64,000 nucleotides of DNA from contig JAGVKQ010000011.1 of assembly GCA_020050435.1 (NCBI GenBank), positions 3,350 to 67,349 on the forward strand, written 5' to 3'. The position numbers were made by a program, and so were the translations under genes. Positions 42,947 through 60,079 of this stretch are shown here, piece by piece. The notes under the pieces were generated by a model. That model ran no database searches. It was not told the DNA's origin and worked only from the letters and a program-made list of their open reading frames with translations. Each line of letters begins with the position of its first letter. Within the stretch, counting starts at the first letter, position 1. Source of the DNA: Candidatus Caenarcanales bacterium. GTDB taxonomy: Bacteria > Cyanobacteriota > Vampirovibrionia > 2-02-FULL-35-15.

Positions 42947-43547
42947 AGACTTTAAACCATATTTGGTGGCTATTACCGGAAACTTTGGATCTGGTAAAAG
43001 TGCTGTAGGGAGTCTACTAAAAAATGATGGGTTCTTACTCGTTGACACAGATGAAATAGTAAATGAAATATTAAAAAATATAAATCCTGTTACGGAGAAG
43101 ATACTTGCTGAATTTGGAAGTGATATTAAAAATCTAAATAGTGACTATTTGATAAACAAAAAAAAATTAGCTTCAATTGTTTTTATTGATGAAACTAAAC
43201 GGAAAAAACTAGAGTTTATTATTCATCCTGCTGTTGAGCAAACCTTATCTACTATATTTTCTTTAAGCCAATTGGAAAAAGTCATTTTTGTTTTAGTCCC
43301 ATTACTGTTTGAATGTAATTTAGAAGGAAATTACCATGAAGTCTGGTGTGTGAAATGTGATAAGAATGTCCAGTTGTCTCGACTTGAAGGTAGAGGCTTT
43401 TCTATTGAAGAAGCTGAAAAAAGAATATCTTCTCAAATGTCTCAAGATGAAAAAGAAAGTCTTTCTGACTTTGTTATTGATAACTCAGCCCAAATAGAAA
43501 ATACTAAATCTCAAATTGATAAAAGATTAAAGAACGGGTTCAATTAA
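42927..43547 (+). CDS. coaE: Dephospho-CoA kinase
   Basis: The Walker A motif is VAITGNFGSGKS and the size is 206 aa. Confidence 0.85.
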   Translation: MKKRKNKDFKPYLVAITGNFGSGKSAVGSLLKNDGFLLVDTDEIVNEILKNINPVTEKILAEFGSDIKNLNSDYLINKKKLASIVFIDETKRKKLEFIIHPAVEQTLSTIFSLSQLEKVIFVLVPLLFECNLEGNYHEVWCVKCDKNVQLSRLEGRGFSIEEAEKRISSQMSQDEKESLSDFVIDNSAQIENTKSQIDKRLKNGFN

Positions 43548-44105
43548 CCCATAATTCCCATCTTTTCTTAGATAGAGAGTGTTTATTTGAGTTGTGCTTG
43601 CATTAATGAAAACATAAAAGTCATGATCAATCATATCTAGGTGATGTAAAGCTTCTTCAGGGGTCATAGGATGAAGTTTGAATTTTTTAGATTTGATTAT
43701 CTTGCCTTCTGAGTGATCTTTTCCATTTGAATTACCATTGACTAACGATGGACTCACTAAGTCCGTAGGTAGGTCTGGTCTGTCTGCATGTTGTAAGCTT
43801 CTATAATGTTTGGCTTTGTATCTTTGTATTTGCCTGTCTAATTTATCTACTACAGTGTCAATGCTTGCATACATATCGTCAGTAGCTTGTTCGGATCGAA
43901 TAATCTTTCCATCTAAAGATATAGTTACTTCTGTAATGTTGTTTTTTGTGATTCTAGGATTTTTTTCTACACTTAACTTCACTCTGACTTCATGGTCTTT
44001 GATTATCACATCATAATGATTTTGTAATCTTGTAAGTTTTTCTGTTATATAGTCTTTGAGTGCTTCAGTCAGTTCTATATTTTTTCCTTCAATTATTATT
44101 TTCAT
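43527..44105 (-). CDS. hpf: Ribosome hibernation promoting factor (long HPF, sigma-54 modulation protein family)
   Basis: MKIIIEGKNIELTEALKDYITEKL is the canonical HPF/YfiA N-terminus. The long form has a C-terminal dimerisation domain. The true start is probably the internal ATG at 44105. Confidence 0.85.
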   Translation of the reverse strand: MKIIIEGKNIELTEALKDYITEKLTRLQNHYDVIIKDHEVRVKLSVEKNPRITKNNITEVTISLDGKIIRSEQATDDMYASIDTVVDKLDRQIQRYKAKHYRSLQHADRPDLPTDLVSPSLVNGNSNGKDHSEGKIIKSKKFKLHPMTPEEALHHLDMIDHDFYVFINASTTQINTLYLRKDGNYGLIEPVL

Positions 44106-44228
44106 ATTTGCTCCTAATAAGATTAAACCATAAATAATTATAGTTTGCTTGCTGTTTTTAGACCATATAAGTTCATCCTTTAGCATGAATTACTTGTAAG
44201 CAAATGATTCCCACTGTAGAATTATGTT

Positions 44229-45131
44229 ATGAAAAATGAAGTCTTTATAGGTTTGACATATGGTGATCCTGCTGGTATAGGCCCTGAAATATTACTTAAA
44301 ACTTTAAGTAACTGGCGATTTAAATTTCTACCTTTAATATTTGGTAGTAATGAATTATCAATGAAAAACATTAAGCAAGGCTCCCCAAACAAAGCTTCAG
44401 GGCTTGACTCTTATAATGCATTGCTCCAAGCAGTTTCTTCTGCTAAAGAAAAGAAGATTATTGCATTAGTTACCGGACCAGTTTCCAAGTATGCTGTAAA
44501 TCTCGCTGGGAAAAAATTCGAAGGTCAGACTGATGAAATAGCAAAACAGTGTAAATTATCTAGTAGTAGTGTGATTATGCTTTTTGCTGCAGCTGATTTT
44601 AGAGTTGCATTATTCACAAGACATATTCCACTGAGAAGCGTATTTAAACATTTAACTAAATCCAAATTAGAAGATTTCATTATTTTATTAAATAAAGAAC
44701 TAAAACAAAAATTAAAAATTAAAAAGCCAAAGATAGCAATTCTTGGCTTGAATCCACATGCCAGTGAGAATGGATTATTTGGTGATGAGGAAGAGAAGAT
44801 TATAATTCCAGTTCTGAAAAAACTTAAAAAGAAAGGAATTAATGTTTTTGGTCCTCTTTCTCCTGATGCTGCATTGGCAGATGCAGGGAAGTTATATCTT
44901 TCTGAAAAATCACAGCCCTATGATGTTTATGTTTCTTTTTATCATGATCAGGCTCTTCCTGTGTTTAAAGCAGTAGCTGGATTTAAAGGTGTTAATGTAA
45001 CTTTAGGGTTGCCATTTTTAAGGGTTTCCGTAGATCATGGTACTGCTTTTGATATTGCTGGAAAAGGAATTGCTTCTAATGAAGGATTGTTGTCTGCTAT
45101 TAGGTTTGTGGAAGATATCGTAAAGCCGTAG
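44229..45131 (+). CDS. pdxA: 4-hydroxythreonine-4-phosphate dehydrogenase
   Basis: GDPAGIGPE at the N-terminus, the metal-binding region NPHASENG and the HDQ/GLPF blocks match PdxA. Confidence 0.9.
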   Translation: MKNEVFIGLTYGDPAGIGPEILLKTLSNWRFKFLPLIFGSNELSMKNIKQGSPNKASGLDSYNALLQAVSSAKEKKIIALVTGPVSKYAVNLAGKKFEGQTDEIAKQCKLSSSSVIMLFAAADFRVALFTRHIPLRSVFKHLTKSKLEDFIILLNKELKQKLKIKKPKIAILGLNPHASENGLFGDEEEKIIIPVLKKLKKKGINVFGPLSPDAALADAGKLYLSEKSQPYDVYVSFYHDQALPVFKAVAGFKGVNVTLGLPFLRVSVDHGTAFDIAGKGIASNEGLLSAIRFVEDIVKP

Positions 45132-45153
45132 AGACGTTGTATACAATGTAAAA

Positions 45154-45229
45154 TGTCATTCTGAAGGAGTGAAACGAACAAGAATCTATTTTCGTTGATG
45201 GATTCTTCGCTAACGCTCAGAATGACACT
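45154..45229. repeat. Family A-variant nested palindromic repeat (gtcattctgaagg...gctcagaatgac with inner cgaacaagaatc...gattcttcgc), abutting the folE stop codon
   Basis: Read directly. Confidence 0.5.
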
Positions 45230-45827
45230 AGCCCCTAATCAGCGATAGTACTTCTGCTCTTGTAGCCTGGTTAGTTTCAAAAATACCTTTTAAAACAGAT
45301 GTAGTTGTTTTAGCTCCTGGTTTTTTAATTCCACGCATAGTCATGCACATATGTTCAGCTTCTATGACTACGGCTACTCCCATGGGATTTAGTTTTTCAA
45401 TTATTGCATTAGCAATTTGCATTGTTAGTCTTTCTTGTACTTGTGGTCTTTTGGAAGCGGTTTCTACCACTCGGGCTAATTTGCTAAGTCCTGTAATAAT
45501 TCCATTTTTTGGTATGTATCCTACATGTGCTACTCCGAAAAATGGTACTAAATGATGCTCACACATACTATAAAAAGGAATATCTTTAACTAGAATTACT
45601 TCAGAGTGATCTTCTTTAAAGGTAATTGAGATTTCATCTTTAGGATCTTTATCTATTCCTGAAAATAATTCAAAATACATTCTGGCTACTCTGTTAGGAG
45701 TATGTAATAAACCATTTCTTTCTGGGTTTTCACCTACTGCTAGTAGGATTTGTTTCACAGCATTTTCTATGACTTCAATTTTCTCTTTTCCTGCTTTGTT
45801 TAAAATATGTTCAATATCGTTATTCAT
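45228..45827 (-). CDS. folE: GTP cyclohydrolase I
   Basis: [10 protein letters not shown] and the HVGYIP block are FolE signatures, and the size is 199 aa. Confidence 0.9.
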
Positions 45828-45885
45828 TGTTTAATTTTAACCCACTTGTATTTTTAGGTTTTCTTTAGAATTTAACCTTACTATT

Positions 45886-45984
45886 GTCATTGCGAGCCCT
45901 GAATGAAATGAAGGGCGTGGCAATCTCAGTTGACCAATATTGTATTGTGAGATTGCTTCACTCATTTCATGGGTTCGCAATGAC
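45886..45984. repeat. Family A nested palindromic repeat, copy 4 (gtcattgcgagccc...gggttcgcaatgac with inner ggcaatctca...tgagattgc)
   Basis: Read directly, in the folE-ilvH intergenic region. Confidence 0.6.
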
Positions 45985-46054
45985 TTTTATCCTTGATTTC
46001 TTCGCACATCTTTGCAAATAATGATAAACTGTAAAACACTAATTTAGAGGTCAC

Positions 46055-46588
46055 ATGCAAAGAGTATTATCAGTTTTAGTAGAAAATGAATCAGGTGTTT
46101 TAACTAGAATCGCTGGTCTTTTTTCCAGAAGAGGTTTTAACATTGAATCCTTAACGGTGGGACCTACTGAAAATCCTTCTTACGCAAGAATTACAATATC
46201 AGTTGCTGGTAGTAATCGCGCTGTTGAACAAATAACTAAACAGCTTCATAAATTAATCAACGTAATTAAAATTACAGATTTAACTGAATTAAGTTTTGTT
46301 GATAGAGAACTTGCTTTGATAAAAGTATCTTCTAATGCCACAACAAGGGCAGAAATTATTCAAATTGCAGATTTATTTAGAGGACATATTGTAGACGTTG
46401 CTGAAGATGTTTTTATTATAGAAGTTACAGGCGATCAAGGAAAAATAAATGCCATTGTTCATTTGTTAGGAAAGTTTGGAATTAAAGAAATAGCCAGAAC
46501 TGGTAGGGTAGCCCTATCTAGAGGCGTGAAGATCGACCAACAATTAGCACCTAACAGGATACCCCTGAGAATGGTTACTAGCACTTAG
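46055..46588 (+). CDS. ilvH: Acetolactate synthase small (regulatory) subunit, ACT domain protein
   Basis: MQRVLSVLVENESGVLTRIAGLFSRRGFNIESLTV is the canonical IlvH/IlvN ACT domain, and the protein is 177 aa. No large-subunit gene is adjacent. Confidence 0.8.
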   Translation: MQRVLSVLVENESGVLTRIAGLFSRRGFNIESLTVGPTENPSYARITISVAGSNRAVEQITKQLHKLINVIKITDLTELSFVDRELALIKVSSNATTRAEIIQIADLFRGHIVDVAEDVFIIEVTGDQGKINAIVHLLGKFGIKEIARTGRVALSRGVKIDQQLAPNRIPLRMVTST

Positions 46589-46690
46589 GGAAGACCATTT
46601 AAACCATAGGACTATTGAGACTATAACGTTTTAAAGTATGGTCTTATCGTCTCCATAGTCTTTATTGTCTTTCCCTTAGTCTTCCCATAA
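46589..46690. repeat. Family B palindromic repeat, copy 1 (agaccattt...ataggactattgagac...atggtcttatcgtctccatagtcttt)
   Basis: It shares about 90 bp with 50054-50140 and carries the GGACTAT / ATAGTCC inverted cores. Confidence 0.5.
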
Positions 46691-46764
46691 CAATCATTTG
46701 CTTTACTACAGATGTACAGATGTCCTACTGGGATACTATTTATTCTTTCTAAGGAATATTTTTT

Positions 46765-47289
46765 ATGGCAGTTCCTACTGCAACAACTTCAGCACCAACA
46801 CCATCATCAACTGGATCAGCTCCTGCTGTTCAACCAGTTGATCCAAATAATCCTCCAAAGCCAGCAGCACCGACTACTGGAACAGGTGTAGCCGCACCTG
46901 GAGATAAATTTGTTAAAGCTGATAATGCTGAGACTAATGACACAGGAAAAGAAGAAGAAGCAAAAGGTGCAATGGCTTCAGTAAAAGCAATTTTAAGTAG
47001 AATACATTTATTAATAACATCTACAGTAAGGATTGTTAATTCTATGGCAAGGTTTGCCATATTTGGTACTGTTGTAGGTTTATCTAGACAAGGTGTTGAT
47101 TTACTTCAAGGATTACTAGGATCTGGTGATTTTAAGAATTCTGCTTTAAAAGGTAATCTCACAGGACTCTTGAGCTTAATTAATACTGTTTTAGGATCAG
47201 CTAAGGACTCTGCTAGTTTTTGGCAAGATGACATTAAAATTGTTAGAGATTTGAAAAAAGGATTTGATGATAACTCTAAACTTGCATAA
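46765..47289 (+). CDS. Hypothetical protein (174 aa) with a Pro/Thr/Ala-rich N-terminus and a hydrophobic middle
   Basis: There is a Shine-Dalgarno (AAGGA). The N-terminus is AVPTATTSAPTPSSTGSAPAVQP. It is the first gene of the co-oriented hypothetical cluster. Confidence 0.45.
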   Translation: MAVPTATTSAPTPSSTGSAPAVQPVDPNNPPKPAAPTTGTGVAAPGDKFVKADNAETNDTGKEEEAKGAMASVKAILSRIHLLITSTVRIVNSMARFAIFGTVVGLSRQGVDLLQGLLGSGDFKNSALKGNLTGLLSLINTVLGSAKDSASFWQDDIKIVRDLKKGFDDNSKLA

Positions 47290-47300
47290 ATTCTAGGTAA

Positions 47301-47331
47301 GGGTCTTGCATTCAAGACCCTCTGTTTATCT
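47301..47331 (+). terminator. Terminator hairpin gggtcttgcattcaagaccc followed by a T-rich tract
   Basis: It has a 7-bp GC-rich stem. The loop carries the gcattca motif shared with two other terminators in this cluster. Confidence 0.5.
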
Positions 47332-47445
47332 CCATCGAATAGTTTTACGACACCCCTTTTTTCATAACTTTCCTTTAATAATCCTCTGCTTAACTACATC
47401 CACGTAGGAGAGAAGTCTCAAATTGTATTTAGAAAAGGGTGATTT

Positions 47446-48090
47446 ATGTCAGATGGATTAAATATAGTAAGTCAAAATAATAAGAACTTAAGCACAGTTC
47501 TTGCGGCCGATAGTGTTAAATCAGACTTTCAAGGTAGTGACCAAAGAAAGCTTGGTGAAGACCTTATAAAAGAAAGCCTTAAGCATGCAGGTGATTCACA
47601 AGCACAAGCAGAAAAAGCAAGAGACTATTTAAATGCAGCAGATAATTTAGAAAGAATGGCTAAGGCTGTAAGATCTCAAGCAAAAAGAATTAAAGAAAAT
47701 GATGTTAAGCCTGAAGATGCAGTAAAACAAATATCAGAAGTTTTTGGTAACCAAGTTCAAATGCCTCTTCCTAAAGATGCTACACCTGAACAATTAGAAA
47801 GTATTGCAGATGATTTAGAAGCAAAAGCAAAAGAAAATAGAAGAATTGCTGATGATCTTTTAAAAGACTCTGAACATAAAGAAGCATTATCACTTAAATT
47901 AAAAGAACAAGCTATGTTAATGGTAAAAAAAGAAACAGGAGCAGATTCTCTTAGGATGAAGTCTGTAACTGCTCACAATGAAGGACTAAGTATGGTCTTT
48001 AAAAAGTTAGGAATTTACAACGTAGATATGCAGTACAAAGAACAGGTTGCATATGCTAGTAGAAAGGCTTCAGAGAAAGGTTTAATGTAA
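47446..48090 (+). CDS. Hypothetical charged alpha-helical protein (214 aa)
   Basis: There is a Shine-Dalgarno (AAAGGGTGA). The protein is K/E/A/D-rich and predicted helical, with no motif. Confidence 0.45.
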   Translation: MSDGLNIVSQNNKNLSTVLAADSVKSDFQGSDQRKLGEDLIKESLKHAGDSQAQAEKARDYLNAADNLERMAKAVRSQAKRIKENDVKPEDAVKQISEVFGNQVQMPLPKDATPEQLESIADDLEAKAKENRRIADDLLKDSEHKEALSLKLKEQAMLMVKKETGADSLRMKSVTAHNEGLSMVFKKLGIYNVDMQYKEQVAYASRKASEKGLM

Positions 48091-48129
48091 TTTCACTTAA
48101 AGGTGGAATTTAAATAAAGGAGAAAAGTT

Positions 48130-49980
48130 ATGTTTATATTACAGATAAATAATCCAGCACAAGTACAAAAAACAGGCAAAGGAAATGGAATTACAGATTT
48201 TCCTAATGGACAGGCAGCATGGAATGGAACAACCTATGGTTCACGTAAAGAAGCTGAAGCTGCTTGGAACGCCAGCTTTAACTCTAGGGGTGGTATGAGG
48301 GCTCCCCAAAACAATGGTGGTGGTAATGCTAAGGCACAACAAAAAGTAGCTCGTGGAAACGATATGATGCAAGGTGGTCATGCAAAAATTCAAGTAGGTA
48401 ATGATGATGTCCAAGGTGGAGGAGCTAAAGTAGAAAAAGGAAATGGAAATGTTAAGTCTGGTGGAGAGAAAGTTAAAACAGGAAATGAAAAAGTTAATGG
48501 AGGAAATACTAAACTCAAGTCAGGAAATGAAAAGATTGCAACAGGAAAAGGAAAGGTAGAAACTGGTAATACTAAAATAGAAGAAGGTAGTGCAAAAATT
48601 AAAGAAGGTCAAGAGAAACTAAATGGATCTCCTGCTAATGCAGATGCTCAAACTGGAATTAAAGAAGGAGAAGCTAAAATAAACTCCGGTAATGAAAAAA
48701 TTACAGGTGGTCAAACAAAACTTACAGATGGTCAAGCAAAACTTACAGATGGTCAAGGTAAGGTAACCGCTGGACAAGGAAAAGTTACTACTGGACAAGG
48801 ACTTGTTCAAACAGGTCAAGGAAACATACAGGCTGGAGGTGCAAAAGTTCAGGCAGGTCAAGCTACCGTTGCAGCAGGACAAGCTTTAGCTGGTCAAGCT
48901 CAGGCATTAATGGCAGATCCTAAAACTGCTGCTCAAGGTCAGGCAATGATGCAGCAAGCACAAGGTCAAATTCAAAAAGGACAAGCTGAAATCCAGGAAG
49001 GTCAACAAAAAATTCAACAAGGACAAAAAGAAGTTGCTGATGGTCAGTCTCAAATTCAAACTGGTCAAGCTGAAGTAAGTCAAGGGAATGCTGATGTTCA
49101 GAAAGGTCAAGCAGATATACAAGCTGGACAAGCAGATATTCAACAAGGACAGCAAGAAGTACAAGAAGGGCAACAAAAAGTAACTGAAGGTCAAGCAAAA
49201 ACAGATGGTAGTGCTGAAGCTGGTGAAGCAAATGAACTTATTAATGCAGGTAAAGCATTACTTGATGCAGGAAAAACTGAAGTCAAAGCTGGCAATGATG
49301 ATGTCAAAGCAGGAAGTGATGAAGTTGAAGCCGGAAAGAAAGATGTAGATGTTGGAAGTAAAGAGGTTGGAGAAGGAAATAAACTTGTAGAATTAGGAAA
49401 TAAAGATGTGGGCGATGGAAATAAAGATGTAGATAAAGGTCAAAAGAATATTGGTGATGGAAATAAAGATGTCCAGGCTGGACAAGATTTGGTAAAAGAA
49501 GGTGACGCTGCAGGCGGTGGTGGTGGTCCTGGCGGAGCTGGTGCTGGTGGTGCTCAACCACAAACCCCAGATGCATCAGGTGGAGCAAGTCCTGGTGGTG
49601 GTGATGGAGGCGGTGGTGATGGTAAAGAAGCAAAATCCGGTGATGGAACTGCTAATGGATACCTTCAGGCTGCAAAAGCTTTATTAAAACAAATTGGACA
49701 AATCTCGCAAGCAATGTCTGGAAATGCAAATCCTATTATTCAGATAGCTAAAAATCTTACGAATAAAGGACTTGCTGAACAAGCAGTTGCATATCTTGAA
49801 GCTGCACAGGTAGATTCTACCATTGGTGGTCAGTCTATAAATCAAGATATTATTCTTACAAAGGCTATGGCATCTACTTGTAAAGGTGATGCAGATACAA
49901 ACATAAACTTCTGGAAAGAAACTCTTGCAGACAACAAATCTCTTGGTAAGGCCACTCATGACTTAGCGAAGATGGCGTAG
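48130..49980 (+). CDS. 616-aa repeat protein made of more than 100 tandem heptads of the form G-[QN]-x-[KD]-[VI]-x-x, a poly-Gly linker and a conserved ~110-aa C-terminal module
   Basis: There is a strong Shine-Dalgarno (AAGGAGAAAAG). Examples of the heptads are GNEKVNG, GNTKLKS, GQADIQA and GQQEVQE. The C-terminal ANGYLQAAKALLKQIGQISQAM...DLAKMA module is shared with two downstream paralogs. Confidence 0.6.
   Translation: MFILQINNPAQVQKTGKGNGITDFPNGQAAWNGTTYGSRKEAEAAWNASFNSRGGMRAPQNNGGGNAKAQQKVARGNDMMQGGHAKIQVGNDDVQGGGAKVEKGNGNVKSGGEKVKTGNEKVNGGNTKLKSGNEKIATGKGKVETGNTKIEEGSAKIKEGQEKLNGSPANADAQTGIKEGEAKINSGNEKITGGQTKLTDGQAKLTDGQGKVTAGQGKVTTGQGLVQTGQGNIQAGGAKVQAGQATVAAGQALAGQAQALMADPKTAAQGQAMMQQAQGQIQKGQAEIQEGQQKIQQGQKEVADGQSQIQTGQAEVSQGNADVQKGQADIQAGQADIQQGQQEVQEGQQKVTEGQAKTDGSAEAGEANELINAGKALLDAGKTEVKAGNDDVKAGSDEVEAGKKDVDVGSKEVGEGNKLVELGNKDVGDGNKDVDKGQKNIGDGNKDVQAGQDLVKEGDAAGGGGGPGGAGAGGAQPQTPDASGGASPGGGDGGGGDGKEAKSGDGTANGYLQAAKALLKQIGQISQAMSGNANPIIQIAKNLTNKGLAEQAVAYLEAAQVDSTIGGQSINQDIILTKAMASTCKGDADTNINFWKETLADNKSLGKATHDLAKMA
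48340..49500 (+). repeat. Coding 21-bp tandem repeat array, the heptad repeats of the 616-aa protein
   Basis: There is a clear 21-nt periodicity, for example ggtcaagcagatatacaagct / ggacaagcagatattcaacaa. Confidence 0.7.
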
Positions 49981-50006
49981 TCTAGCGATTAGATTATTAG
50001 AAATTG

Positions 50007-50040
50007 AAAAGAGAAGGCATTCATGGTCTTCTCTTTTTGT
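50007..50040 (+). terminator. Terminator-like hairpin aaagagaaggcattcatggtcttctcttt followed by ttgtttgttt
   Basis: The stem is about 9 bp with one mismatch. The loop contains gcattca. Confidence 0.45.
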
Positions 50041-50053
50041 TTGTTTATCTTTT

Positions 50054-50140
50054 AAGACCATTTGACAATAGGACTATGGAGACCATGTCGTCTCACAAAA
50101 ATGGTCTTATGGTCTCCATAGTCTTTATAGTCTACCCCTA
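50054..50140. repeat. Family B palindromic repeat, copy 2 (taggactatggagaccat ... atggtctccatagtcttta)
   Basis: Its arms form an approximately 18-bp inverted repeat, and it is a near-copy of 46589-46690. Confidence 0.5.
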
Positions 50141-50217
50141 GATAACGTTCTCTTAAATATGTCCCTGTTAAATGTCCTGTAACTAGTTCAAAACTAGTAT
50201 AGGAATTTTACATTGTT

Positions 50218-51129
50218 ATGAGACATATAAATTCAACAAACAATATTAATAAAAAACCTGATGTAAATAAGTCAGATAATGCTTCTCAGGAGTCTCCTGC
50301 CCTAAAAGCAGCTAATGCAAAACTCTTACAATCAATGCAATCACAAGCTCAATCAATAAGAAATTTGTCACAAGCCCCATCACAAAATAATCAGGATTTA
50401 AATGTAATTAAAGATAGAAATCAATCTTTATTAGACTTTGATAAAGCTAAAGTTGAATCATTAAAAGAAGATTCTACTAATACAAATAATCAATCAATAG
50501 AAACAGAGGATGCTTCTGGTGGTAGTGCTTATAGTGGTGGATTTTTATTAGGCAAAGATGATTCTACTGGATATAAGGGATATGACCAGTCTCGTGCAAA
50601 TGATTGGAAAGAAGGTAAAGGAATATATTCTACTGGTGGAGCATATTCAACATATACAGGAAATGGTGCAGAAAATCTTAGTGGTTCTGGAGGAGCTGGT
50701 TCTGGTAATGCTGGAAATCAAAATGTAGGAGCTAGTTCTGGTAATGCAAATTCTGGTGGAGGAGTTTCTACTTCTGATAGCGGAAGTGCTGCTGGAAGTG
50801 CAAACGGATACTTGCAGGCTGCAAAAGCATTATTAAAACAAATCGGACAAATCTCACAAGCAATGGCTGGAAATGCAAATCCTATTATTCAGATAGCTAA
50901 AAACCTTACTAATAAAGGGCTTTCAGAGCAGGCAGTAGCATATTTAGAAGCAGCTCAGGTAGATACTACTCTCGGTGGTCAGGCTATAAATCAAGAAATT
51001 ATTTTAACGAAAGCTCAGGCAAGTACTATTAAAGGTGATTCAGATACTAATATTAATTATTGGAAAGAAACTCTTGCAGACAATAAATCTATGGGCAAGG
51101 CTACTCATGACTTAGCTAAGATGGCGTAA
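50218..51129 (+). CDS. Hypothetical protein (303 aa), paralog family member with an MxHINS N-terminus, a G/S/N-rich middle and the conserved C-terminal module
   Basis: The N-terminus MRHINSTNNINKKPD...KAANAKLLQSMQSQAQS is shared with the 51366 gene. The C-terminal 110 aa are about 85% nucleotide-identical to the 3' end of the 616-aa gene. Confidence 0.6.
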   Translation: MRHINSTNNINKKPDVNKSDNASQESPALKAANAKLLQSMQSQAQSIRNLSQAPSQNNQDLNVIKDRNQSLLDFDKAKVESLKEDSTNTNNQSIETEDASGGSAYSGGFLLGKDDSTGYKGYDQSRANDWKEGKGIYSTGGAYSTYTGNGAENLSGSGGAGSGNAGNQNVGASSGNANSGGGVSTSDSGSAAGSANGYLQAAKALLKQIGQISQAMAGNANPIIQIAKNLTNKGLSEQAVAYLEAAQVDTTLGGQAINQEIILTKAQASTIKGDSDTNINYWKETLADNKSMGKATHDLAKMA

Positions 51130-51159
51130 CGTAGCATAAATCGTTTTGTTAATTACCCT

Positions 51160-51187
51160 GTAGGGGCATTGCATTCAATGCCCCTAC
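51160..51187 (+). terminator. Strong terminator hairpin gtaggggcattg catt caatgcccctac followed by ctcttttac
   Basis: The 12-bp stem is perfect, and it contains gcattca as well. Confidence 0.6.
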
Positions 51188-51365
51188 TCTCTTTTACACC
51201 AACATTTTTATTGGACATTGTTCTCCTTGTTCTGTTCTCCCCTAAAAGTCCTTTTTGCCTTTATTCTCCTTTGTTCTCCTTTGTTCTCCATAACTTTCCC
51301 TTAAATATTCCCCTGTTAAATACCCTTTAACTAGCTCAAAACTAGTATAGGGATATTACATTGTT

Positions 51366-52643
51366 ATGAAGCATATAAATTCAATAAATGGAATTAACCA
51401 ACAGGCCGATTTAAGTAAGCCAGGTAATAACGTTGAGGATGTTTCATCACAAAAAGCTGCTAACAGTAAATTGCTTTCTTCTCTTCAATCACAATCTCAA
51501 TCAATGCGAGCTGCAGCACAAGATAATTCACAATTAAGTTCTAGTAAAATAAATGAAAGAGCAGAGTACTCTAAAGATTTTAATAACTCAAATAAAACAT
51601 CACAAGAGTCTAGCGAAACATCAGTAAATAAAATTAAAGAATCTATTGATTTAATGAGTAGTTCATTTTTCAAAAAGACTGAATCAAGATTACTTAAAGA
51701 ACAAGCAAAAACTGAACCTGGTGAAGTTGCTCAGGAATTAAAAAGACAATCTAAAGAAAAACTAAAAGAGGCAATAGCAGATTTTAGAGGTTCATTTAAG
51801 GCTTACAATAAATCACAAGAAGAGGATATGAATGCATTTCAAGCAAGCATGGACGCTTCTAATTCTCAAGACTTAGCTTCTGGTGCACAATCTCAATCTA
51901 ATCAAGCTCAAGTTAAAGCGGTGACTTATAATAATCAGGCAAATAGAACATCAGCAGAAGCTACAACTGTACAAACCCAACAAACACAAAGTCAGTCAGT
52001 GCAACCTCAGTCATCACAAACTCAGTCAGGAGAAACTAAGGATGCTTCTGGTGGGAGTTTATTTGGACCTAATGCAGGATTATTTTCAAATCCTTCCCCT
52101 ACTGCATACAATGGGATGGATCAATCTCGTGCTAATGATTCTCGTAATAGTAAAGGAATCTTTGCTACTGGAGGCGGAGTCTCAGAAATTACAGGAAATG
52201 GTGCAGTAAATTCTAACAATAATGCTAATGCTAATGCTAATGCTAGTGCTGGTGCTTCAAATGGTGCAGATCCTTCCGTTGACACTAATGGTGCTGATGG
52301 ACTTAGCGCTGCAGGTAATGCATATTTAGATGCAGCACGTATGATGCTTAGAGTAGTTATGCAAGTAACGATTGGTGCGAGAAGTTCAAATCCAATTGTT
52401 CAAATATCAAAAAACCTAACTAATAAATCTTTGTCCGACCAAGCTATAGCATATTTAGAAGCAGCAAACGTTGACACTGCTCTTAATGGTACAGCAGTAA
52501 ATCAACAAATAATTCTTACTAAAGCTCAAGCAAGTACTATTAGTGGTGAAGCACAAACAGGTATTAATTACTGGAAACAAGTTCTTGAAGGTAACAAACA
52601 ACTTCAAAAAGAAACACATGATATGTCTAAGGCTGCAGGGTAA
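51366..52643 (+). CDS. Hypothetical protein (425 aa), the third paralog, with an MKHINS N-terminus, a Q/S/N-rich middle and a more divergent copy of the C-terminal module
   Basis: MKHINSINGINQQAD...KAANSKLLSSLQSQSQS at the N-terminus and C-terminal GNAYLDAAR...NPIVQISKNLTNKSLSDQAIAYLEAANVD...ILTKAQAST...NYWK are shared with the other paralogs. The 5' leader is near-identical to that of the 50218 gene. Confidence 0.6.
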   Translation: MKHINSINGINQQADLSKPGNNVEDVSSQKAANSKLLSSLQSQSQSMRAAAQDNSQLSSSKINERAEYSKDFNNSNKTSQESSETSVNKIKESIDLMSSSFFKKTESRLLKEQAKTEPGEVAQELKRQSKEKLKEAIADFRGSFKAYNKSQEEDMNAFQASMDASNSQDLASGAQSQSNQAQVKAVTYNNQANRTSAEATTVQTQQTQSQSVQPQSSQTQSGETKDASGGSLFGPNAGLFSNPSPTAYNGMDQSRANDSRNSKGIFATGGGVSEITGNGAVNSNNNANANANASAGASNGADPSVDTNGADGLSAAGNAYLDAARMMLRVVMQVTIGARSSNPIVQISKNLTNKSLSDQAIAYLEAANVDTALNGTAVNQQIILTKAQASTISGEAQTGINYWKQVLEGNKQLQKETHDMSKAAG

Positions 52644-52692
52644 TAGTAGATAGTATTTTTTTTGTCAAAAAATATGTTGTATACTATGAAAC

Positions 52693-53496
52693 GTGCAATC
52701 AATATCTAAGTTTGGCAAGAACCCTTTTATATGGCTAGTAGAGCTGGGTGATTCATTTAGAATTTTCACCTTTGCCATTTATTACATTCTTCGTGGGAAA
52801 TTCCCAAAAAAAGAATTTATTGAACAAGCCAGTAGATTAGGATTTGATACTTTGCCTGTGGTTGCTGTTGTTACATTTTTTATTGGATTAGCTTTAACTC
52901 TTCAGATTTCTAAACAGCTTATGGGTGTTGGAAACACTAGTACTCTTGGAACTTCAGTTGCAGTATCTATAGTCCGTGAAATTGGTCCTGTTATTGCTGG
53001 TGTAATGATAGCTGCTCGTGTAGGTGGAGCTATGGCCGCAGAGATTGCTACGATGAGTGTTACAGAACAGATTGATGCTCTCAAAATTATGAAAATTGAT
53101 CCCATTAGTTTTCTTGTTGCGCCTAGAATATTAGCTTCAATGATAATGGCTCCTTTGCTAACCGTTTATGCTATTTATATTGGTAGTCTTGGTGGAATGC
53201 TTATCGCTATTATTTATGTGCAGCTTGACCCTTATATGTTTTTTGACTCATTTAGATCTGTTGTTGGAGATAGAGATATTCTTATTGCGCTTGCAAAAGC
53301 ACTTGTTAATGGCTCTTTAGTTGCTACATTTAGCTGTGCATTTGGAATGCAAACTTCTGGTGGTGCTGCAGGTGTGGGTCAAACTACTACTAAAGCAGTT
53401 GTGTGGGCTATGCTTTGTATCTTCTTATTTAATTTCTTAATTACAAACGCTGTGTATTCTGTTGGAAAAGTTTTAGACCCATCTTTTATAAAGTAA
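52693..53496 (+). CDS. mlaE: Phospholipid ABC transporter permease MlaE family (GTG start)
   Basis: 267 aa with 5 TM helices. The conserved region LPVVAVVTFFIGLALTLQ and the MlaE-type C-terminus are present. Confidence 0.8.
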   Translation: MQSISKFGKNPFIWLVELGDSFRIFTFAIYYILRGKFPKKEFIEQASRLGFDTLPVVAVVTFFIGLALTLQISKQLMGVGNTSTLGTSVAVSIVREIGPVIAGVMIAARVGGAMAAEIATMSVTEQIDALKIMKIDPISFLVAPRILASMIMAPLLTVYAIYIGSLGGMLIAIIYVQLDPYMFFDSFRSVVGDRDILIALAKALVNGSLVATFSCAFGMQTSGGAAGVGQTTTKAVVWAMLCIFLFNFLITNAVYSVGKVLDPSFIK

Positions 53497-53506
53497 ATGA
53501 GAAGAC

Positions 53507-54220
53507 ATGAAATTAATAGAAGTAAATAATGTATTTAAAGCCTATGAAGATTTGAAAGTCTTAGAGGGTGTTTCTTTGTCCGTTAACTCTGGAGAAAGTC
53601 TTGCAGTTGTTGGTCCATCTGGAGTCGGTAAATCTACATTGTTAAAGCTGATTTGTGGGTTAGAAACTCCTGACAGTGGTGATGTGAAAGTTTTTACAGA
53701 AAAAGTTGGTATGGTGTTTCAGAGTGCAGCACTTCTAAATTCATATACAGTTTATGAAAACATTGCTCTGGCTTTGCATAATACAAAGCTAACTAACAAA
53801 GAAAAAAGAGAAAAAATTGAAGATAAACTTTCAATTGTCGGACTTGAGAAATATATTGATTATATGCCTGATCAACTATCTGGTGGACAAAGAAAACGTG
53901 TAGGATTTGCTAGGGCAATCGCTAATGATCCAGAAGTTATTTTATATGATGAGCCCACTGCAGGACTGGATCCTATTCTATGTACATTGATTGAAGATTA
54001 CATAACTAACTTAGCTAAGAAATTTAAGGTTGCAAGTATTGTAATTACTCATCAACTTACAACTATTTCAAGAACATCTGAGCATGTTTTATTGCTTTAC
54101 GCTGGTAAGGTTGTCTATGAGGGGAAACCTTCTGATTTCATGGTATCGAAAAATCCTTATGCATATCAGTTTGTAAATTCAAAAGTTGAGGGACCGATTC
54201 ATATAGGCTTGGTAGAATAG
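53507..54220 (+). CDS. mlaF: ABC transporter ATP-binding protein, MlaF-like
   Basis: Walker A GPSGVGKST, the signature LSGGQRKRVGFA and Walker B ILYDEPTAGLD. Confidence 0.85.
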   Translation: MKLIEVNNVFKAYEDLKVLEGVSLSVNSGESLAVVGPSGVGKSTLLKLICGLETPDSGDVKVFTEKVGMVFQSAALLNSYTVYENIALALHNTKLTNKEKREKIEDKLSIVGLEKYIDYMPDQLSGGQRKRVGFARAIANDPEVILYDEPTAGLDPILCTLIEDYITNLAKKFKVASIVITHQLTTISRTSEHVLLLYAGKVVYEGKPSDFMVSKNPYAYQFVNSKVEGPIHIGLVE

Positions 54221-54270
54221 ATATCTCGAGATTACTAATCCGAGATCATGGTGGAAGCAAGATATAAAAT

Positions 54271-54945
54271 ATGAAGAATGAGAATGAAATAAAAATAGGA
54301 ATCTTTGCAATGTCAGCTTTATTTCTATTGATAATTGGATGGGCCTTTTTAAGAGAATTAGCTCTTCATAAACAGACTACATTTTATGTTTCTTTTAAAG
54401 ATACAGTGGGTTTAAGTAAAGGTTCTTTTATTAAGATCAATGGTGTAAGGGTAGGTAGAGTTGATAGTTTAACCTTAGATCTAAAAACCAATAAAGTTCT
54501 TGTTAAAACTAGGATTCAATTGCCAGACATTCGTATTCCTGATGACTCGAAATTTATTATTCGAACAAGTGGATATGTAGGTGATAAGTTTTTAGATATT
54601 GCGCTTGGCATGGCATCTAGCTTTATTAAGGATGATCAGGAAATTGCTGGAGAACCTGCTGTTGATGCATTTGCTTCTTTGGAAAAAATTAGTAAAGTTT
54701 TAGATCACATAGATCCTGAACTATTAGCTATGGATATTCAGAATACAGCCTCTAGTGCTGCAACTCTTACAAAAAATGCAGATAAAGCTGTATTAGTAGC
54801 CAGCCGAGAATTCTCATCAACTAACCAAGAGTTTTCATCAGCTTTAAATCAAAGATTTTTACTTCCAAAGTTGTTATTTGGAAAAGTATTACCAAATAGT
54901 AAAATTGATAAGAAGAAAAAAAATGCTAAGGATGATAAAAATTAA
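54271..54945 (+). CDS. mlaD: MCE-domain periplasmic substrate-binding protein, MlaD-like
   Basis: An N-terminal TM anchor is followed by an MCE domain (VSFKDTVGLSKGSFIKINGVRVGRV). Confidence 0.75.
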   Translation: MKNENEIKIGIFAMSALFLLIIGWAFLRELALHKQTTFYVSFKDTVGLSKGSFIKINGVRVGRVDSLTLDLKTNKVLVKTRIQLPDIRIPDDSKFIIRTSGYVGDKFLDIALGMASSFIKDDQEIAGEPAVDAFASLEKISKVLDHIDPELLAMDIQNTASSAATLTKNADKAVLVASREFSSTNQEFSSALNQRFLLPKLLFGKVLPNSKIDKKKKNAKDDKN

Positions 54946-55018
54946 GTAAAAAATGATACTATTGAGAACTGGTAATTCTGGATTCTGATTCTATAAAATT
55001 AATTATTTCTAGTGCTGT

Positions 55019-55105
55019 GGACAGGTGTTCGAGTGGTTTATGAAGATAGTCTTGAAAACTATTGATGCCGTAAGGTATCCGGGGGTTCGAATCCCTCCCT
55101 GTCCT
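55019..55105 (+). tRNA. tRNA-Ser (anticodon UGA), class II with a long variable arm
   Basis: Manual fold: acceptor ggacagg/cctgtcc, D-arm ttc/gaa, anticodon stem atagt/actat with loop cttgaaa (anticodon TGA), a long variable arm, and T-arm ggggg-ttcgaat-ccctc. CCA is not encoded. Confidence 0.8.
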
Positions 55106-55162
55106 AATTTTAGTTTCAAGTTGTCAGTTACAAGTTGCAAGGAAAACTCAGAAAAAAATTTA

Positions 55163-55192
55163 GGTTACAAGGTTCTCCTTGTAACTTAAAAC
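55163..55192 (+). terminator. Hairpin ggttacaagg ttctc cttgtaac followed by ttaaaactt, downstream of tRNA-Ser
   Basis: It has a 9-bp stem, read directly. Additional inverted repeats (agtttcaag / cttgaaact) flank it. Confidence 0.4.
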
Positions 55193-55349
55193 TTAAGTCT
55201 TGAAACTGTCGTCATACATAATTAAAAGTTTTCTATGTAAAACACAATCTTATAAGAGTATAAAATTTAGATTTATTTATTGTATTAACGTGTAATATCT
55301 TACTGATAAAATTTATATATTTATTGCACCTATCTAAGGATATTATTTT

Positions 55350-56672
55350 GTGTTTTTATTGTTTTCATCATCACTAGCTATTGATCCAACTATTAGTCTG
55401 AGCCCAAGACTTACTGACTTGTCTAAAAAAGCAAGTGAGCTGAAATCTAAGCTTACATATAAAGCTATAAAAAAAGGGGAGCAAAATCATTTAGCTCAAA
55501 GAGTTGGGATTGAAGCCATAGGTGTAGATTTGCCTACTATTGTTTGTGAGTTTTTTCTTAGAGGGTATAAATCTGCTTTAGGTTCTGGTATAAGAATTAG
55601 TTTATTTATTCTTAACTCATTGATAATTCCTACTTTAATTGTTCCAGTGTTAAGTTTCTTTGCTAAAAGTAAATTTGACTTACCTAAACACTTTAAAAAT
55701 TCTTTTTTAAATCAATTTGAAGATTTAACTCCTGAGAAGAAAACTGATGAATCAAATGTTGAGTTTGTGGAAAGTGTTAAAAAAATAGAGAGTGAAGAAG
55801 CTGTTAAGAAAGAGTTCTATAAAAGTGATGGCAGTGTTGATCATGCTTCTGTATTAGGCTTTAAAGATAAGATATTAAAAGCTAAGTCATTTGTAATGAG
55901 GTGGGATGTTCAAGTTTCAGGACTTTTAACTTATTTAGTTCCATGGTGTCAAAATTGGTTTGAGCAAAAAACTCTAGGCTTAATAGGTTTCTCTGGAGAG
56001 GATAAATTTTTAGAAGATTCACAGAAAGATGAAAGTATGGAATTCCATAATAAATATAAAAATTGGAAGCTTGCTGCAGGTGTATTACCTACAGTTTTAG
56101 GTAGTCATTACTTTTCAAAAACAGTTCAGGATTCTGTAGGAAGTACTGATGAGGAAGTTAAGAATAAAAGTATAAAGGGGTTTGTAAAAAAACATATTAA
56201 ACAATTTGATTATCATGAAGGTATTTATGCAAACAAATTAAATCTTGCCGGAATTATATTTTTTGGTGGTGATGCTGGTATGATTCTGGCTGCCAGAACC
56301 ATTGGTGAGGCTTGTGAAAGAGTCGTAAGACTTAGTGCATTTTGGCCATCATTTGTCTATGGTATTGAATGGATGCATTCTAAATTTGCTTTAAGTAGCG
56401 ATAAAAAACAAGATACTCAGTTGATTGATCATAATGAGCATGAAGAGTTTGGTATAAAGAAAGTAAAAACTTTAGATAAGTTAGAATTAGAATTTGATAC
56501 AGCTGTTAAAGAAAATGATGAAAAGAAAGCAGGAGTTGCATTAAAGGGGATGGAAAATGGGGTGGGTGCTTTTGGGAAAGCATTCTTAGGAAACAGTGCA
56601 TTTCTTGGAGTAATACTAAATCTAATTAGTTATGTGTTTATGAGAGTAAGAATTGCAAAGGGTATTTATTAA
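55350..56672 (+). CDS. Hypothetical membrane-associated protein (440 aa, GTG start)
   Basis: Long ORF with hydrophobic segments (LFILNSLIIPTLIVPVLSFF, GIIFFGGDAGMILAA) and no recognisable domain. Confidence 0.4.
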   Translation: MFLLFSSSLAIDPTISLSPRLTDLSKKASELKSKLTYKAIKKGEQNHLAQRVGIEAIGVDLPTIVCEFFLRGYKSALGSGIRISLFILNSLIIPTLIVPVLSFFAKSKFDLPKHFKNSFLNQFEDLTPEKKTDESNVEFVESVKKIESEEAVKKEFYKSDGSVDHASVLGFKDKILKAKSFVMRWDVQVSGLLTYLVPWCQNWFEQKTLGLIGFSGEDKFLEDSQKDESMEFHNKYKNWKLAAGVLPTVLGSHYFSKTVQDSVGSTDEEVKNKSIKGFVKKHIKQFDYHEGIYANKLNLAGIIFFGGDAGMILAARTIGEACERVVRLSAFWPSFVYGIEWMHSKFALSSDKKQDTQLIDHNEHEEFGIKKVKTLDKLELEFDTAVKENDEKKAGVALKGMENGVGAFGKAFLGNSAFLGVILNLISYVFMRVRIAKGIY

Positions 56673-56750
56673 TATTATTTTTATTTGATCAATAAAACTG
56701 TTAATTCATAGTAAAATTATTTCGTTTCTTTCTAATTTAAGGAAAAATTT

Positions 56751-57485
56751 ATGTCAACAACTATAGAAAAAATACCAGCAAAATTTGGTGAAACAAAAAG
56801 AAAAGATTTATGGTGGTTAGAACCTCTTTTGTATTTTATTGGATTGGGTGGCTTTGTCGTCTATGCTACATGGGCAGCATTTCAAGGAAATCATTACGAA
56901 TATGGTCCTTATCTTTCTCCATTTTATTCTCCAGAGCTAGTTTTTGACTGGTGGAAATTTTCGCCTGCATTTTTAATTCTTTGGATTCCAGCAGGCTTTA
57001 GAACCACATGCTATTACTATAGAAAAGCATATTACCGCTCATTCTTTATGGATCCACCTGCATGTGCAGTTAGTGAGGGATGTAAAAAATATACTGGTGA
57101 AACTGGCTTCCCATTAATTTTTCAAAATATTCATAGATATTTTTTCTACTTGGCAGCTATATTTATTGTTTTTCTTTGGATAGATGCATATAAAGCATTT
57201 TTCTTTGATGGAGTCTTTGGTATAGGTATAGGATCTATTGTTTTAACTGCAAATGTATTTTTACTTTCATGTTATACCTTTTCATGCCATTCATTTAGGC
57301 ATTTAATAGGTGGTTTTAAAGATAGCTTTAAGTGTGGTATTCAGCATAAAGTCTATGAAAAAGTTAGTTGTGCTAATGAGCATCATATGCTCTGGGCATG
57401 GCTTAGTTTATTCTCAGTAGGCTTTGCAGATATTTATGTGAGACTTTGTTCGATGGGGATTTGGACAGATCTAAGGTTAATGTAA
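56751..57485 (+). CDS. sdhC: Putative succinate dehydrogenase membrane anchor / cytochrome b subunit (5 TM, Cys/His-rich)
   Basis: 244 aa with 5 predicted TM helices. It is immediately upstream of sdhA and sdhB in the same orientation. It is assigned by context and architecture only. Confidence 0.5.
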   Translation: MSTTIEKIPAKFGETKRKDLWWLEPLLYFIGLGGFVVYATWAAFQGNHYEYGPYLSPFYSPELVFDWWKFSPAFLILWIPAGFRTTCYYYRKAYYRSFFMDPPACAVSEGCKKYTGETGFPLIFQNIHRYFFYLAAIFIVFLWIDAYKAFFFDGVFGIGIGSIVLTANVFLLSCYTFSCHSFRHLIGGFKDSFKCGIQHKVYEKVSCANEHHMLWAWLSLFSVGFADIYVRLCSMGIWTDLRLM

Positions 57486-57503
57486 AGGCGTTGAGGGCGA
57501 GGT

Positions 57504-59312: not shown

Positions 59313-59344
59313 TTATTACATCTCTAATTCCAAAGGAAAAATAC

Positions 59345-60079
59345 ATGAAAGAAGCAAAATTTAAGGTATATCGCGGTGATGACAAATCTGGAGAAGAAAT
59401 TGCATATACCGTTCCTGTAGAAGAAGGCATGGTTGTTCTTGATGCTATGCATCATATTCAGAGAAATGCATGTTCTGACTTGGCTGTTCGTTGGAATTGT
59501 AAGGCTGCTAAATGTGGATCATGTAGTGCTGAGGTAAATGGAAAACCTAAGCTTATGTGTAAATCTAGGCTTGATGATTATGATCTCAGTCAAGAAATTA
59601 CAGTTCGTCCTATGAAATCTTTTCCTGTAATTAAAGACCTTGTTTGTGATGTTTCCTGGAATTATGAAGTAAATAAAAAAATTGTCCCATTTACTCCTAA
59701 AGAAGGTACTGATTGGACTATGTCCCAAAGGGATGTAGAAAGATCACAAGAATTTAGAAAATGTATTGAATGTTTTGCCTGTCAAAATGTTTGTCACGTA
59801 CTTCGTGATCATGATTTAAAACCAAAATTTGCAGGACCAAGATTTTTTGTACGTGTAGCTGGATTAGAAATGCATCCTTTAGATGTAGCTAATAGACTAG
59901 AGTATATTAAAGATGATATGGGAATTGGTTTTTGTAATATAACTAAGTGTTGTACAGAGGTTTGTCCTGAAGATATCCATATCACTGATAATGCCATTAT
60001 CCCTTTGAAAGAAAGAGTAGTTGATGAATATTATGAACCAGTAAAAATGGTTTTAAAAGGGATTTTTGGAAAGAAGTAA
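59345..60079 (+). CDS. sdhB: Succinate dehydrogenase iron-sulfur subunit
   Basis: The [2Fe-2S] block CSDLAVRWNCKAAKCGSCSAEVNG and the [4Fe-4S]/[3Fe-4S] blocks CIECFACQNVC and CTEVCP are present. Confidence 0.9.
   Translation: MKEAKFKVYRGDDKSGEEIAYTVPVEEGMVVLDAMHHIQRNACSDLAVRWNCKAAKCGSCSAEVNGKPKLMCKSRLDDYDLSQEITVRPMKSFPVIKDLVCDVSWNYEVNKKIVPFTPKEGTDWTMSQRDVERSQEFRKCIECFACQNVCHVLRDHDLKPKFAGPRFFVRVAGLEMHPLDVANRLEYIKDDMGIGFCNITKCCTEVCPEDIHITDNAIIPLKERVVDEYYEPVKMVLKGIFGKK

Follow-up and report, generated by a model that had tools for sequence, protein, structure and literature searches.

In a 64,000-nucleotide (nt) stretch of the chromosome of a Candidatus Caenarcanales bacterium (GCA_020050435.1, contig JAGVKQ010000011.1, positions 3,350 to 67,349; hereafter the window), two adjacent genes encoding proteins of 616 and 303 amino acids (aa) end in almost the same ~330 bp of DNA. 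The question raised by this locus is how two otherwise different genes came to share their 3' ends, and what the C-terminal module encoded there is for. The genes of the cluster are referred to as A (616 aa), B (303 aa), C (425 aa), D (174 aa), and E (214 aa). We consider it likely that they form a clade-specific syntenic cluster in which B303 originated as a chimera, selection preserved the module, and gene conversion patched parts of it; a docking role of the module is proposed with low confidence. The case shows that three separate histories can be combined in tails that are 85% identical.

Histories along the shared module

A repeat search aligned positions 49641-49940 with 50790-51089 at 85% identity and a third copy at ~75% over its best 218 nt. 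In BLASTP, the similarity between A616 and B303 (E = 1e-68) is restricted to the C-terminus. The codon-aligned modules of A and B (109 codons) are 85.0% identical in nucleotides and 89.9% in amino acids, and they differ at 49 of 327 positions, comprising 30.5 synonymous and 18.5 nonsynonymous differences (synonymous divergence, dS, 0.63; nonsynonymous divergence, dN, 0.076; dN/dS 0.12). The initial annotation, which had described near-identical ends (~85% over ~330 bp) with mostly synonymous differences, was exact on these points, coordinates included. It also correctly described the third copy as much more diverged: the C module (52314-52640) shows 62% nt identity to A and 65% to B, with a dS to the B module of 1.28. 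Its statement that the N-terminal and central regions are unrelated or low-complexity does not extend to B303 and C425, which are related over their entire length: in their N-termini (39% aa identity; MRHINS... and MKHINS...), in a central segment (~50% aa identity; ETxDASGGS...TGNGA), and in the 76 nt upstream, where the two leaders are 87% identical.

The two modules and their subdivisions are as follows.

49651..49977, forward strand: A616 module, 109 codons, first codon GCT at 49651
50800..51126, forward strand: B303 module, 109 codons, first codon GCT at 50800, predicted three-helix bundle
49651..49761, forward strand: 5' third of the A module, paired with 50800-50910 in B, without orthology signal
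49762..49917, forward strand: core of the A module, paired with 50911-51066 in B, old divergence with orthology signal
49918..49977, forward strand: putative 3'-terminal conversion tract of A, paired with 51067-51126 in B

The A and B modules of the window were aligned with those of a sister species (L082; JGI metagenome 3300009777), in which the gene order D-E-A-B-C is identical to that of the window. Informative sites in this four-sequence alignment were scored as O when the orthologs agree, C when the two copies within a genome agree, and X for the third possible grouping. Read from the 5' to the 3' end of the module, these classes form the series OCOOOOOOOOOOCOOOOOOOOOOOOOOOCCCCCCCCCCC, made up of 26 O and 13 C sites and no X site. 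The best breakpoint is located after module nt 261, with a maximum chi-square of 30.6 that was reached by 0 of 100,000 permutations (p<1e-5).

In the core (module nt 112-267), 25 of 26 informative sites group the orthologs, which are 95-97% identical, in contrast to 79-82% for the paralogs. Core dS equals 0.81-0.91 between paralogs and 0.16 between orthologs. Given this five-fold difference, the A and B modules were already separate and well diverged when the two species split.

The tail (nt 268-327) behaves differently: at each of its 11 informative sites, A agrees with B of its own genome, and these sites include synonymous ones (AAG/AAA, TTA/TTG, GCG/GCT). Here, the identity between A and B reaches 90% in the window and 97% in L082, in contrast to 72-78% for the orthologs. 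The ortholog divergence of the tail (22-28%) is 5 to 7 times that of the core (3-5%) and about equal to the core paralog divergence. This points to gene conversion that is real but local, acting on a 3' tract. In the simplest reading, two old versions of the tail would have existed, and each lineage would have copied a different one onto both genes. Since the two species appear to carry different fixed tails, at least two short-tract conversions are required. Concerted evolution of the C-terminal module, as previously suggested, is hence found in the last 60 nt, where likeness within a genome exceeds likeness between orthologs (11 of 11 sites), and is contradicted by the orthology signal of the core (25 of 26 sites).

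In the head (nt 1-111), B of the window is 91% identical to A of the window and 83% identical to its own ortholog, and B of the sister species carries 10 singletons. The longest identical run between A and B in the window lies in this part (37 nt, 49718-49754 = 50867-50903) and is long enough for homologous recombination. Further exchange probably took place in the first ~110 nt of the module.

A mosaic of this kind might also be produced by homologous recombination with the alleles of foreign strains rather than by conversion within the genome. The center of A, which is clearly replaced, resembling a distant relative (L092; E = 1e-10) and not L082, is in line with such exchange, as is the six-fold variation of ortholog dS along the region. 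However, the same foreign tail would be needed separately in A and in B of each genome, and a donor within the genome, 1.15 kb away, is simpler, which makes foreign exchange unlikely. An old duplication or chimera without later recombination, its likeness kept up by purifying selection and perhaps by codon or RNA constraints, fits the core exactly and agrees with a module dN/dS of 0.12-0.17 throughout. We nevertheless hold it to be quite improbable, as selection alone cannot place 11 by-genome sites, of which several are synonymous, within 60 nt that adjoin 156 nt grouping by gene, nor give a tail ortholog divergence of 22-28% versus 3-5% in the core.

The initial annotation had also put forward a very recent segmental duplication, with one tail copied from the other shortly ago. 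This would account for the 85% DNA identity, the mostly synonymous differences, and the tandem arrangement at a spacing of 1,149 nt, yet it is hardly tenable. The module dS of 0.63 is as large as the between-species dS of housekeeping genes (0.26-1.2 for the window versus L082), 25 of 26 core sites group the orthologs, and A, B, and C all have orthologs in L082, with an ortholog dS of 0.16-0.43 versus 0.63 for the paralogs. The gene order is likewise ancient and stable, which speaks against a recent event, and the module dN/dS of 0.12-0.17, compared to 0.28-0.69 elsewhere in the genes, does set the module apart. An assembly artifact, with the alike tails arising from a collapsed repeat or a chimeric join, might be suspected for a lineage known from metagenome assemblies only but is scarcely credible, as the copies differ at 49 of 327 positions with both reading frames intact, the B-C order occurs in three independent sister-species contigs (with the full D-E-A-B-C in L082), and the architecture recurs in outline across the clade.

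The same alternation of groupings is seen more widely in a bootstrapped neighbor-joining tree of 27 modules. A of the window groups with A of L082 (bootstrap, 97-99%) and B with B of L082 (74-79%), and the A and B modules together form a group (100%). The C425 module clusters with C of the sister species and with the B/C-type gene of the relative L002 (96-99%). The A-type and B/C-type modules group by genome in L003 (100%) and in L011 (78-89%), the modules of L087 and L089 cluster by type, and the D-type modules remain apart. These groupings imply that episodes of homogenization between A-type and B/C-type modules have recurred in the clade. Ortholog dN/dS equals 0.14-0.17 for the module, versus 0.28 (C), 0.50 (B), and ~0.69 (A, poorly alignable) for the N-terminal and central parts. 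The module is the constrained part of these proteins, with the regions in front of it turning over fast.

Origin of B303 and turnover of the locus

The cluster comprises five genes, and the products of four of them end in the ~110-residue module.

46765..47289, forward strand: D174, Pro/Thr-rich N-terminus and divergent C-terminal module (~46960-47286)
47446..48090, forward strand: E214, conserved protein predicted as a helical hairpin, lacking the module, encoded immediately 5' of the A-type gene
48130..49980, forward strand: A616, A-type (open reading frame [ORF] translation), with N-terminus MFIL..., heptad repeats, Gly-rich linker, and module
50218..51129, forward strand: B303, apparent chimera with C-type promoter, leader, N-terminus, and center, and A-type module
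51366..52643, forward strand: C425, B/C-type, retaining its own older module type (52314-52640)

Judged by its sequence, B303 is a chimera in which a C-type front is joined to an A-type module. We infer that it is older than the split between the window and L082 species, the latter of which carries its ortholog (P0002). The module repeat and the leader/N-terminus repeat are colinear, both being spaced by 1,148-1,149 nt. The B-C N-terminal dS (0.73) is close to the A-B core dS (0.81-0.91), with a B-C module dS of 1.28, so the two halves of B look equally old. Unequal crossover between tandem paralogs (nonallelic homologous recombination) makes chimeric genes, and the B303 arrangement resembles its products in the colinear unit of ~1.15 kb, in the combination of the 5' part of the downstream gene with the 3' part of the upstream gene, and in the similar age of the halves. 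It differs in that the junction in B303 falls in the Gly-rich low-complexity linker, where it is not exactly locatable, and in that the distal intergenic DNA is unalignable. A single unequal crossover between the A module and the module of an ancestral C-type gene is the likeliest origin of B303. The alternative, a duplication of C followed by conversion of the full module from A, is not preferred, although the two are inseparable because the distal intergenic DNA no longer aligns.

The crossover would have taken place before the species split and would have duplicated a ~1.15-kb unit, consisting of the module, the intergenic region, the promoter/leader, and the C-type N-terminus, so that the new gene received an A-type module. 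The two cores have since come to share 79-82% of their nucleotides, with purifying selection acting on them (dN/dS 0.12-0.17). Short-tract conversion between the tandem copies would then have rehomogenized the last ~60 nt, where the pattern is observed and the events are deduced from it.

Several observations weigh against this account. The distal intergenic DNA of the proposed ~1.15-kb unit is just 35-40% identical. The evidence for exchange in the head is weak, consisting of two informative sites, and just 3 of the 10 singletons of the sister-species B are shared with C. Moreover, a single sister genome carries both A and B, leaving the direction and number of conversions unpolarized, and the modules of L090, the intended third genome (E214 70% identical), are too divergent to polarize them.

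Within this history, the passenger part of A followed a course of its own. A616 contains ~55 tandem 21-nt (7-aa) units, G-x-x-K-[VIL]-x-x, at ~48340-49500. Its heptads match Pfam PF21300 (LbR_Ice_bind, the beta-roll of grass antifreeze protein) at residues 374-453 (E = 3.8e-9; 36.9 bits versus a cut-off of 30), where the matched region is a low-complexity array with a seven-residue period; NCBIfam coiled-coil models (SMC, HmpF) score far below their cut-offs. The central ~380 residues are unrelated to those of A in L082, which are Ala/Gln rich, and it is the A-type gene of a more distant relative, L092, to which the Gly/Gln heptads show similarity (E = 1e-10). That gene also encodes EF-hand-like loops, which remain below Pfam thresholds. 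A has thus exchanged its passenger part, which appears to have been replaced as a cassette.

The cluster D174-E214-A616-B303-C425 is located between ilvN and mlaE in a Melainabacteria (Vampirovibrionia) genome of groundwater type. The window is bacterial chromosome with ~33% G+C, in which a 16S gene begins and a tRNA is encoded as well. Housekeeping genes flank it on both sides, with hpf, pdxA, folE, and ilvN upstream and mlaE, mlaF, and mlaD, followed by sdhCAB, downstream. With the adjacent MlaE as query, a scan of GTDB that took a single genome from each species yielded ten loci at 78-88% identity, the next matches being at ~40%. Nine of these ten are Melainabacteria metagenome-assembled genomes, many with groundwater-assembly labels; the closest match (L002, 88%) was deposited as "uncultured Gammaproteobacteria" and has the same family and flanking genes. 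In 8 of the 10 GTDB relatives, ilvN plus E214 and/or module genes lie upstream of mlaE, a frame that is shared by further metagenome contigs. L002 has one module gene, but ilvN and E214 are not shown there, and L006 has neither E214 nor the module. The recurring gene order is ilvN, a short D-type gene, the conserved 214-aa E, a long A-type gene, one or two B/C-type genes, and mlaE. Outside the pair formed by the window and L082, the relatives have a single B/C-type gene. Two more independent assemblies carry the B-C-mlaE part of the L082 species.

The locus is old and syntenic, with hypervariable gene content. Ortholog dS is uneven over window positions 43527-60079 relative to L082, with values of 0.19 for E, 0.26 for ilvN, 0.36 for sdhA, 0.87 for mlaE, and ~1.2 for mlaF and mlaD. 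This unevenness suggests that the DNA around the locus is a mosaic produced by recombination with other strains. L082 carries two small reverse-strand genes between ilvN and D (5404-6084), one with a weak PIN-domain match, and this pair looks like a toxin-antitoxin module. Two additional small reverse ORFs are present between A and B in L082, and all four small genes are absent from the window.

D174 and E214 differ strongly in their rate of change. The module of D174, a fourth and divergent copy beyond the three first noted, is recognizable by its match to the family hidden Markov model (E = 1e-9 over model positions 4-115) and by hhalign (E = 1e-4). D-type orthologs are present at the same position in L082, L087, L088, L089, L011, and L090. 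D174 evolves very fast, with 29% aa identity to its L082 ortholog and a dN/dS of ~0.95, in contrast to the 95% protein identity of E214 to its own L082 ortholog. E214 is a constant component of the locus and has 39 homologs, none usefully annotated. Its structure is predicted with moderate confidence as a long helical hairpin with generic structure matches only. A look-up of encoding contigs returned neither B303 nor E214 by exact sequence, yet the protein index lists an entry that is 100% identical to E214 (P0047, in NCBI and JGI). It bears the JGI name "ribosomal protein L17," which looks spurious, the Pfam L17 match being below threshold (E = 0.15).

One of the closest known parallels to such a family is found in Helicobacter pylori, in which the outer membrane paralogs babA/babB, sabA/sabB, and hopM/hopN undergo concerted evolution by gene conversion. 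Both systems combine variable N-terminal and central parts with a conserved C-terminal domain, homogenized 3' DNA, chimeric genes, and clustering by genome. The H. pylori proteins differ in their beta-barrel anchor, Sec signal peptides, and dispersed loci, in contrast to the soluble three-helix bundle, lack of signal peptide, tandem genes, and short conversion tracts of the window family. Gene conversion among paralogs is a textbook mechanism, and the value of the present case is descriptive rather than conceptual. It illustrates how a tandem family is built by chimeric birth, purifying selection, and conversion patches, which can be separated base by base with the help of a sister genome.

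The module family and its possible role

The module is a conserved domain of a small, clade-restricted, and undescribed gene family, of which the domain, the helper gene, and the leader are likewise undescribed. A search of 1.84 billion cluster representatives with the module profile returned 46 proteins, one of them a TPR-like false positive. In all 45 true family proteins, the module ends at most ~20 residues from the C-terminus, and in all but two it ends within three. The family proteins are 72-822 aa long, and all module copies that could be located come from a single Melainabacteria clade and, within it, from the ilvN-mlaE locus. Three N-terminal classes can be distinguished: MFIL[DQN]... 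(A-type), M..H[LI][GN][PS]I... (B/C-type), and Pro-rich (D-type). When a 5.8-billion-protein index was searched with a module profile, one relative was found, and a 43-sequence profile retrieved D-type proteins only; this index evidently misses most of the family. A GTDB scan with module peptide patterns, which were too narrow, gave no match. The only NCBI relative from the first module-profile search is L001 (GCA_021733385.1, a 1-kb contig), in which an in-frame TAA (537-539) splits the Gly-rich linker from the module and the module is called as a 106-aa ORF with a TTG start. Possible explanations of this split are a pseudogene, an error in sequencing, and a module that stands alone.

AlphaFold2, run for the B module with a 47-sequence alignment, predicts with high confidence that the module folds as a three-helix bundle (pLDDT, the per-residue confidence score, 88.9; pTM, the global fold score, 0.76). 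The query comprised 116 aa, and its helices span residues 4-29, 35-66, and 70-115. Helix 2 is strongly conserved (NPIxQIAKNLTNKxLSEQAxAYLEAA). Helix 3 is longer than the other two, and the converted tail corresponds to its C-terminal end, the last 20 residues. Structure searches with the module returned generic helical bundles only. Its likeness to spectrin-repeat and MIT-like three-helix bundles is at fold level, with 5-16% identity and de novo designed proteins as best matches.

The family proteins contain 0.06% Cys and 28-49% Gly/Ser/Asn/Gln/Thr. In the cluster, the regions in front of the module lack Cys, are rich in Gly/Ser/Asn/Gln, and are repetitive, coiled, or disordered. According to a hydropathy heuristic, none of 49 family proteins has a 19-residue window with a mean Kyte-Doolittle hydrophobicity of >= 2.0 or a signal-peptide-like N-terminus, the N-termini being polar (MRHINSTNN..., MFILQINNPAQ...). 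Sequence searches of Pfam, NCBIfam, PHROGs, and PDB gave no match for D, E, B, C, or the module; A616 gave repeat or coiled-coil matches only. In a literature search covering Melainabacteria and secretion systems, no mention of the module family was found.

It is possible, at low confidence and somewhat short of even chances, that the proteins have the module in common as a docking or targeting domain, by which variable passengers are tied to one partner or export route and carried, perhaps to the surface or the outside. This reading fits the invariant C-terminal position of the module, its conserved helix 2, and the Gly-rich linker, together with the near absence of Cys, the fast or swapped passengers, the beta-roll-like array of A, the EF-hand-like loops in L092, and the companion gene E. 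E214 is a candidate partner or chaperone of the module. That the passengers are specifically surface located or secreted is doubtful. Two further findings tell against a docking role in export: no signal peptide, transmembrane segment, or neighboring secretion genes were found, and the only HlyD-family and TolC-like genes of the window are those of an AcrB-type efflux pump, 30 kb distant.

C-terminal targeting as such is known for secreted effectors, for example through the BID domain in type IV substrates of Bartonella and through C-terminal signals in type I (RTX) substrates. Like the window family, these carry a conserved module of ~100 residues at their extreme C-terminus with a Gly-rich stretch in front of it, and the proteins are paralogous, poor in cysteine, and unrelated in their other parts. 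They differ in that the window family shows no sequence or specific fold match to them, no GGxGxD motif, and no type I or IV genes nearby.

Known export classes were considered individually and rejected. For type I (RTX) substrates, no GGxGxD or HemolysinCabind Pfam match is present in the four module proteins, E214, or 47 family members, one of which has a weak RTX_C match (E = 0.0013); the adjacent ABC system is MlaEFD, for lipid transport, without a dedicated exporter nearby. The BID/type IV class is at odds with the model of three helices instead of the four-helix BID bundle, and the module and family members gave no Pfam match at E <= 0.01. For WXG100/type VII proteins, the conserved Trp (...NYWKE...) lies inside helix 3, there is no WxG, and the sole related Pfam match is EspB_PPE at E = 0.89. 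Flagellin- and FlgM-type export substrates were dropped in the absence of a flagellin N/C or FlgM Pfam match; the N-terminal MRHINS... is reminiscent of flagellin. Harpins were considered and dropped as well, as the proteins passed no defining test.

More doubtful still than export itself is that the locus represents an undescribed system of surface or secreted variation, in which the module would be the common export or anchoring handle and E214 a dedicated helper. The interchangeable passengers would be beta-roll-like heptads, Ala/Gln coiled coils, and Gly/Ser/Asn-rich segments. Unequal crossover and conversion between the handles would shuffle the passengers while keeping the handles fit for a coevolving partner, and one conserved promoter plus 5'-leader hairpin would drive all genes. 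Fast passenger turnover is as expected of proteins facing the environment, prey, or phages. The uncultured, nonphotosynthetic relatives of Cyanobacteria that carry this locus possess an unannotated, clade-restricted family with its own domain, helper gene, and promoter/leader.

Regulatory sequences and other features

The predicted regulatory elements around B303 and C425 are the following.

50148..50217, forward strand: promoter-like motif and 5' leader of B303, hairpin AACTAG-N7-CTAGT at 50182-50198
51296..51365, forward strand: promoter-like motif and leader of C425, hairpin at 51330-51346
50005..50039, forward strand: terminator-like hairpin after A616

Four of the genes, D, E, B, and C, share an upstream promoter-like motif, ...ATAAC-N~14-CTG(T/A)TTAA(A/C)T, also written ATAAC-N~14-CTGTTAAAT, which lies at ~46690-46720 in front of D174 and at ~47365-47400 in front of E214. 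In B/C-type genes, the motif is followed by the hairpin AACTAG-N7-CTAGT and then by a conserved 18-nt box, (A/G)TAGRGGAWANTACATTT. The motif is kept in the window and in most of the distant relatives examined, and the motif and leader, conserved in 10 loci, are seen in L002, L003, L011, L082, L087, L089, and L090. Between the window and L082, the B leaders are 89% identical and the C leaders 97% identical, although neutral/housekeeping dS is ~0.5. The hairpin is present in all 10 B/C-type leaders, and its 5-bp stem is paired in each of them, with three compensatory double changes (L003, ATTGG/CCAAT; L089, GCTAG/CTAGC). It could be a 5' untranslated region stem-loop or the palindromic operator of a clade-specific regulon.

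Terminator-like hairpins comparable to that after A616 follow D174 (47300-47321) and B303 (51160-51187), from which D, E+A, and B are predicted as transcription units. The hairpin scan detected no terminator-like site after C425, and C may run on into mlaE.

Elsewhere in the window, a resistance-nodulation-division (RND) efflux set and a HerA-type ATPase (DUF87 plus HAS-barrel) occupy the regions 12080-17792 and 21765-23435. In the RND set, a TolC-like gene on the forward strand stands beside an AcrB-type pump and an HlyD-family fusion protein on the reverse strand. Neither the RND set nor the ATPase has a link to the module family. A 440-aa protein without an above-threshold family match is encoded at 55350-56672, between a tRNA (55019-55105) and sdhC. 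It was not detected at the same position in L004, L009, or L089, and copies with 61-81% identity are present in L002, L003, and L082.

Finally, paired 15-nt inverted repeats, ATGGTCTCCATAGTC, lie at 46610-46660 and 50072-50123 within a similar element of ~90 nt. They are perfect upstream of B303 and have one or two mismatches upstream of D174, with arms 21-22 nt apart. Five matches to the inverted repeat were found versus ~1 expected by chance, and BLAST found no copy of the ~90-nt element in the relatives. The element could serve as an operator, or it could be a small element that is mobile or REP-like (repetitive extragenic palindrome-like).

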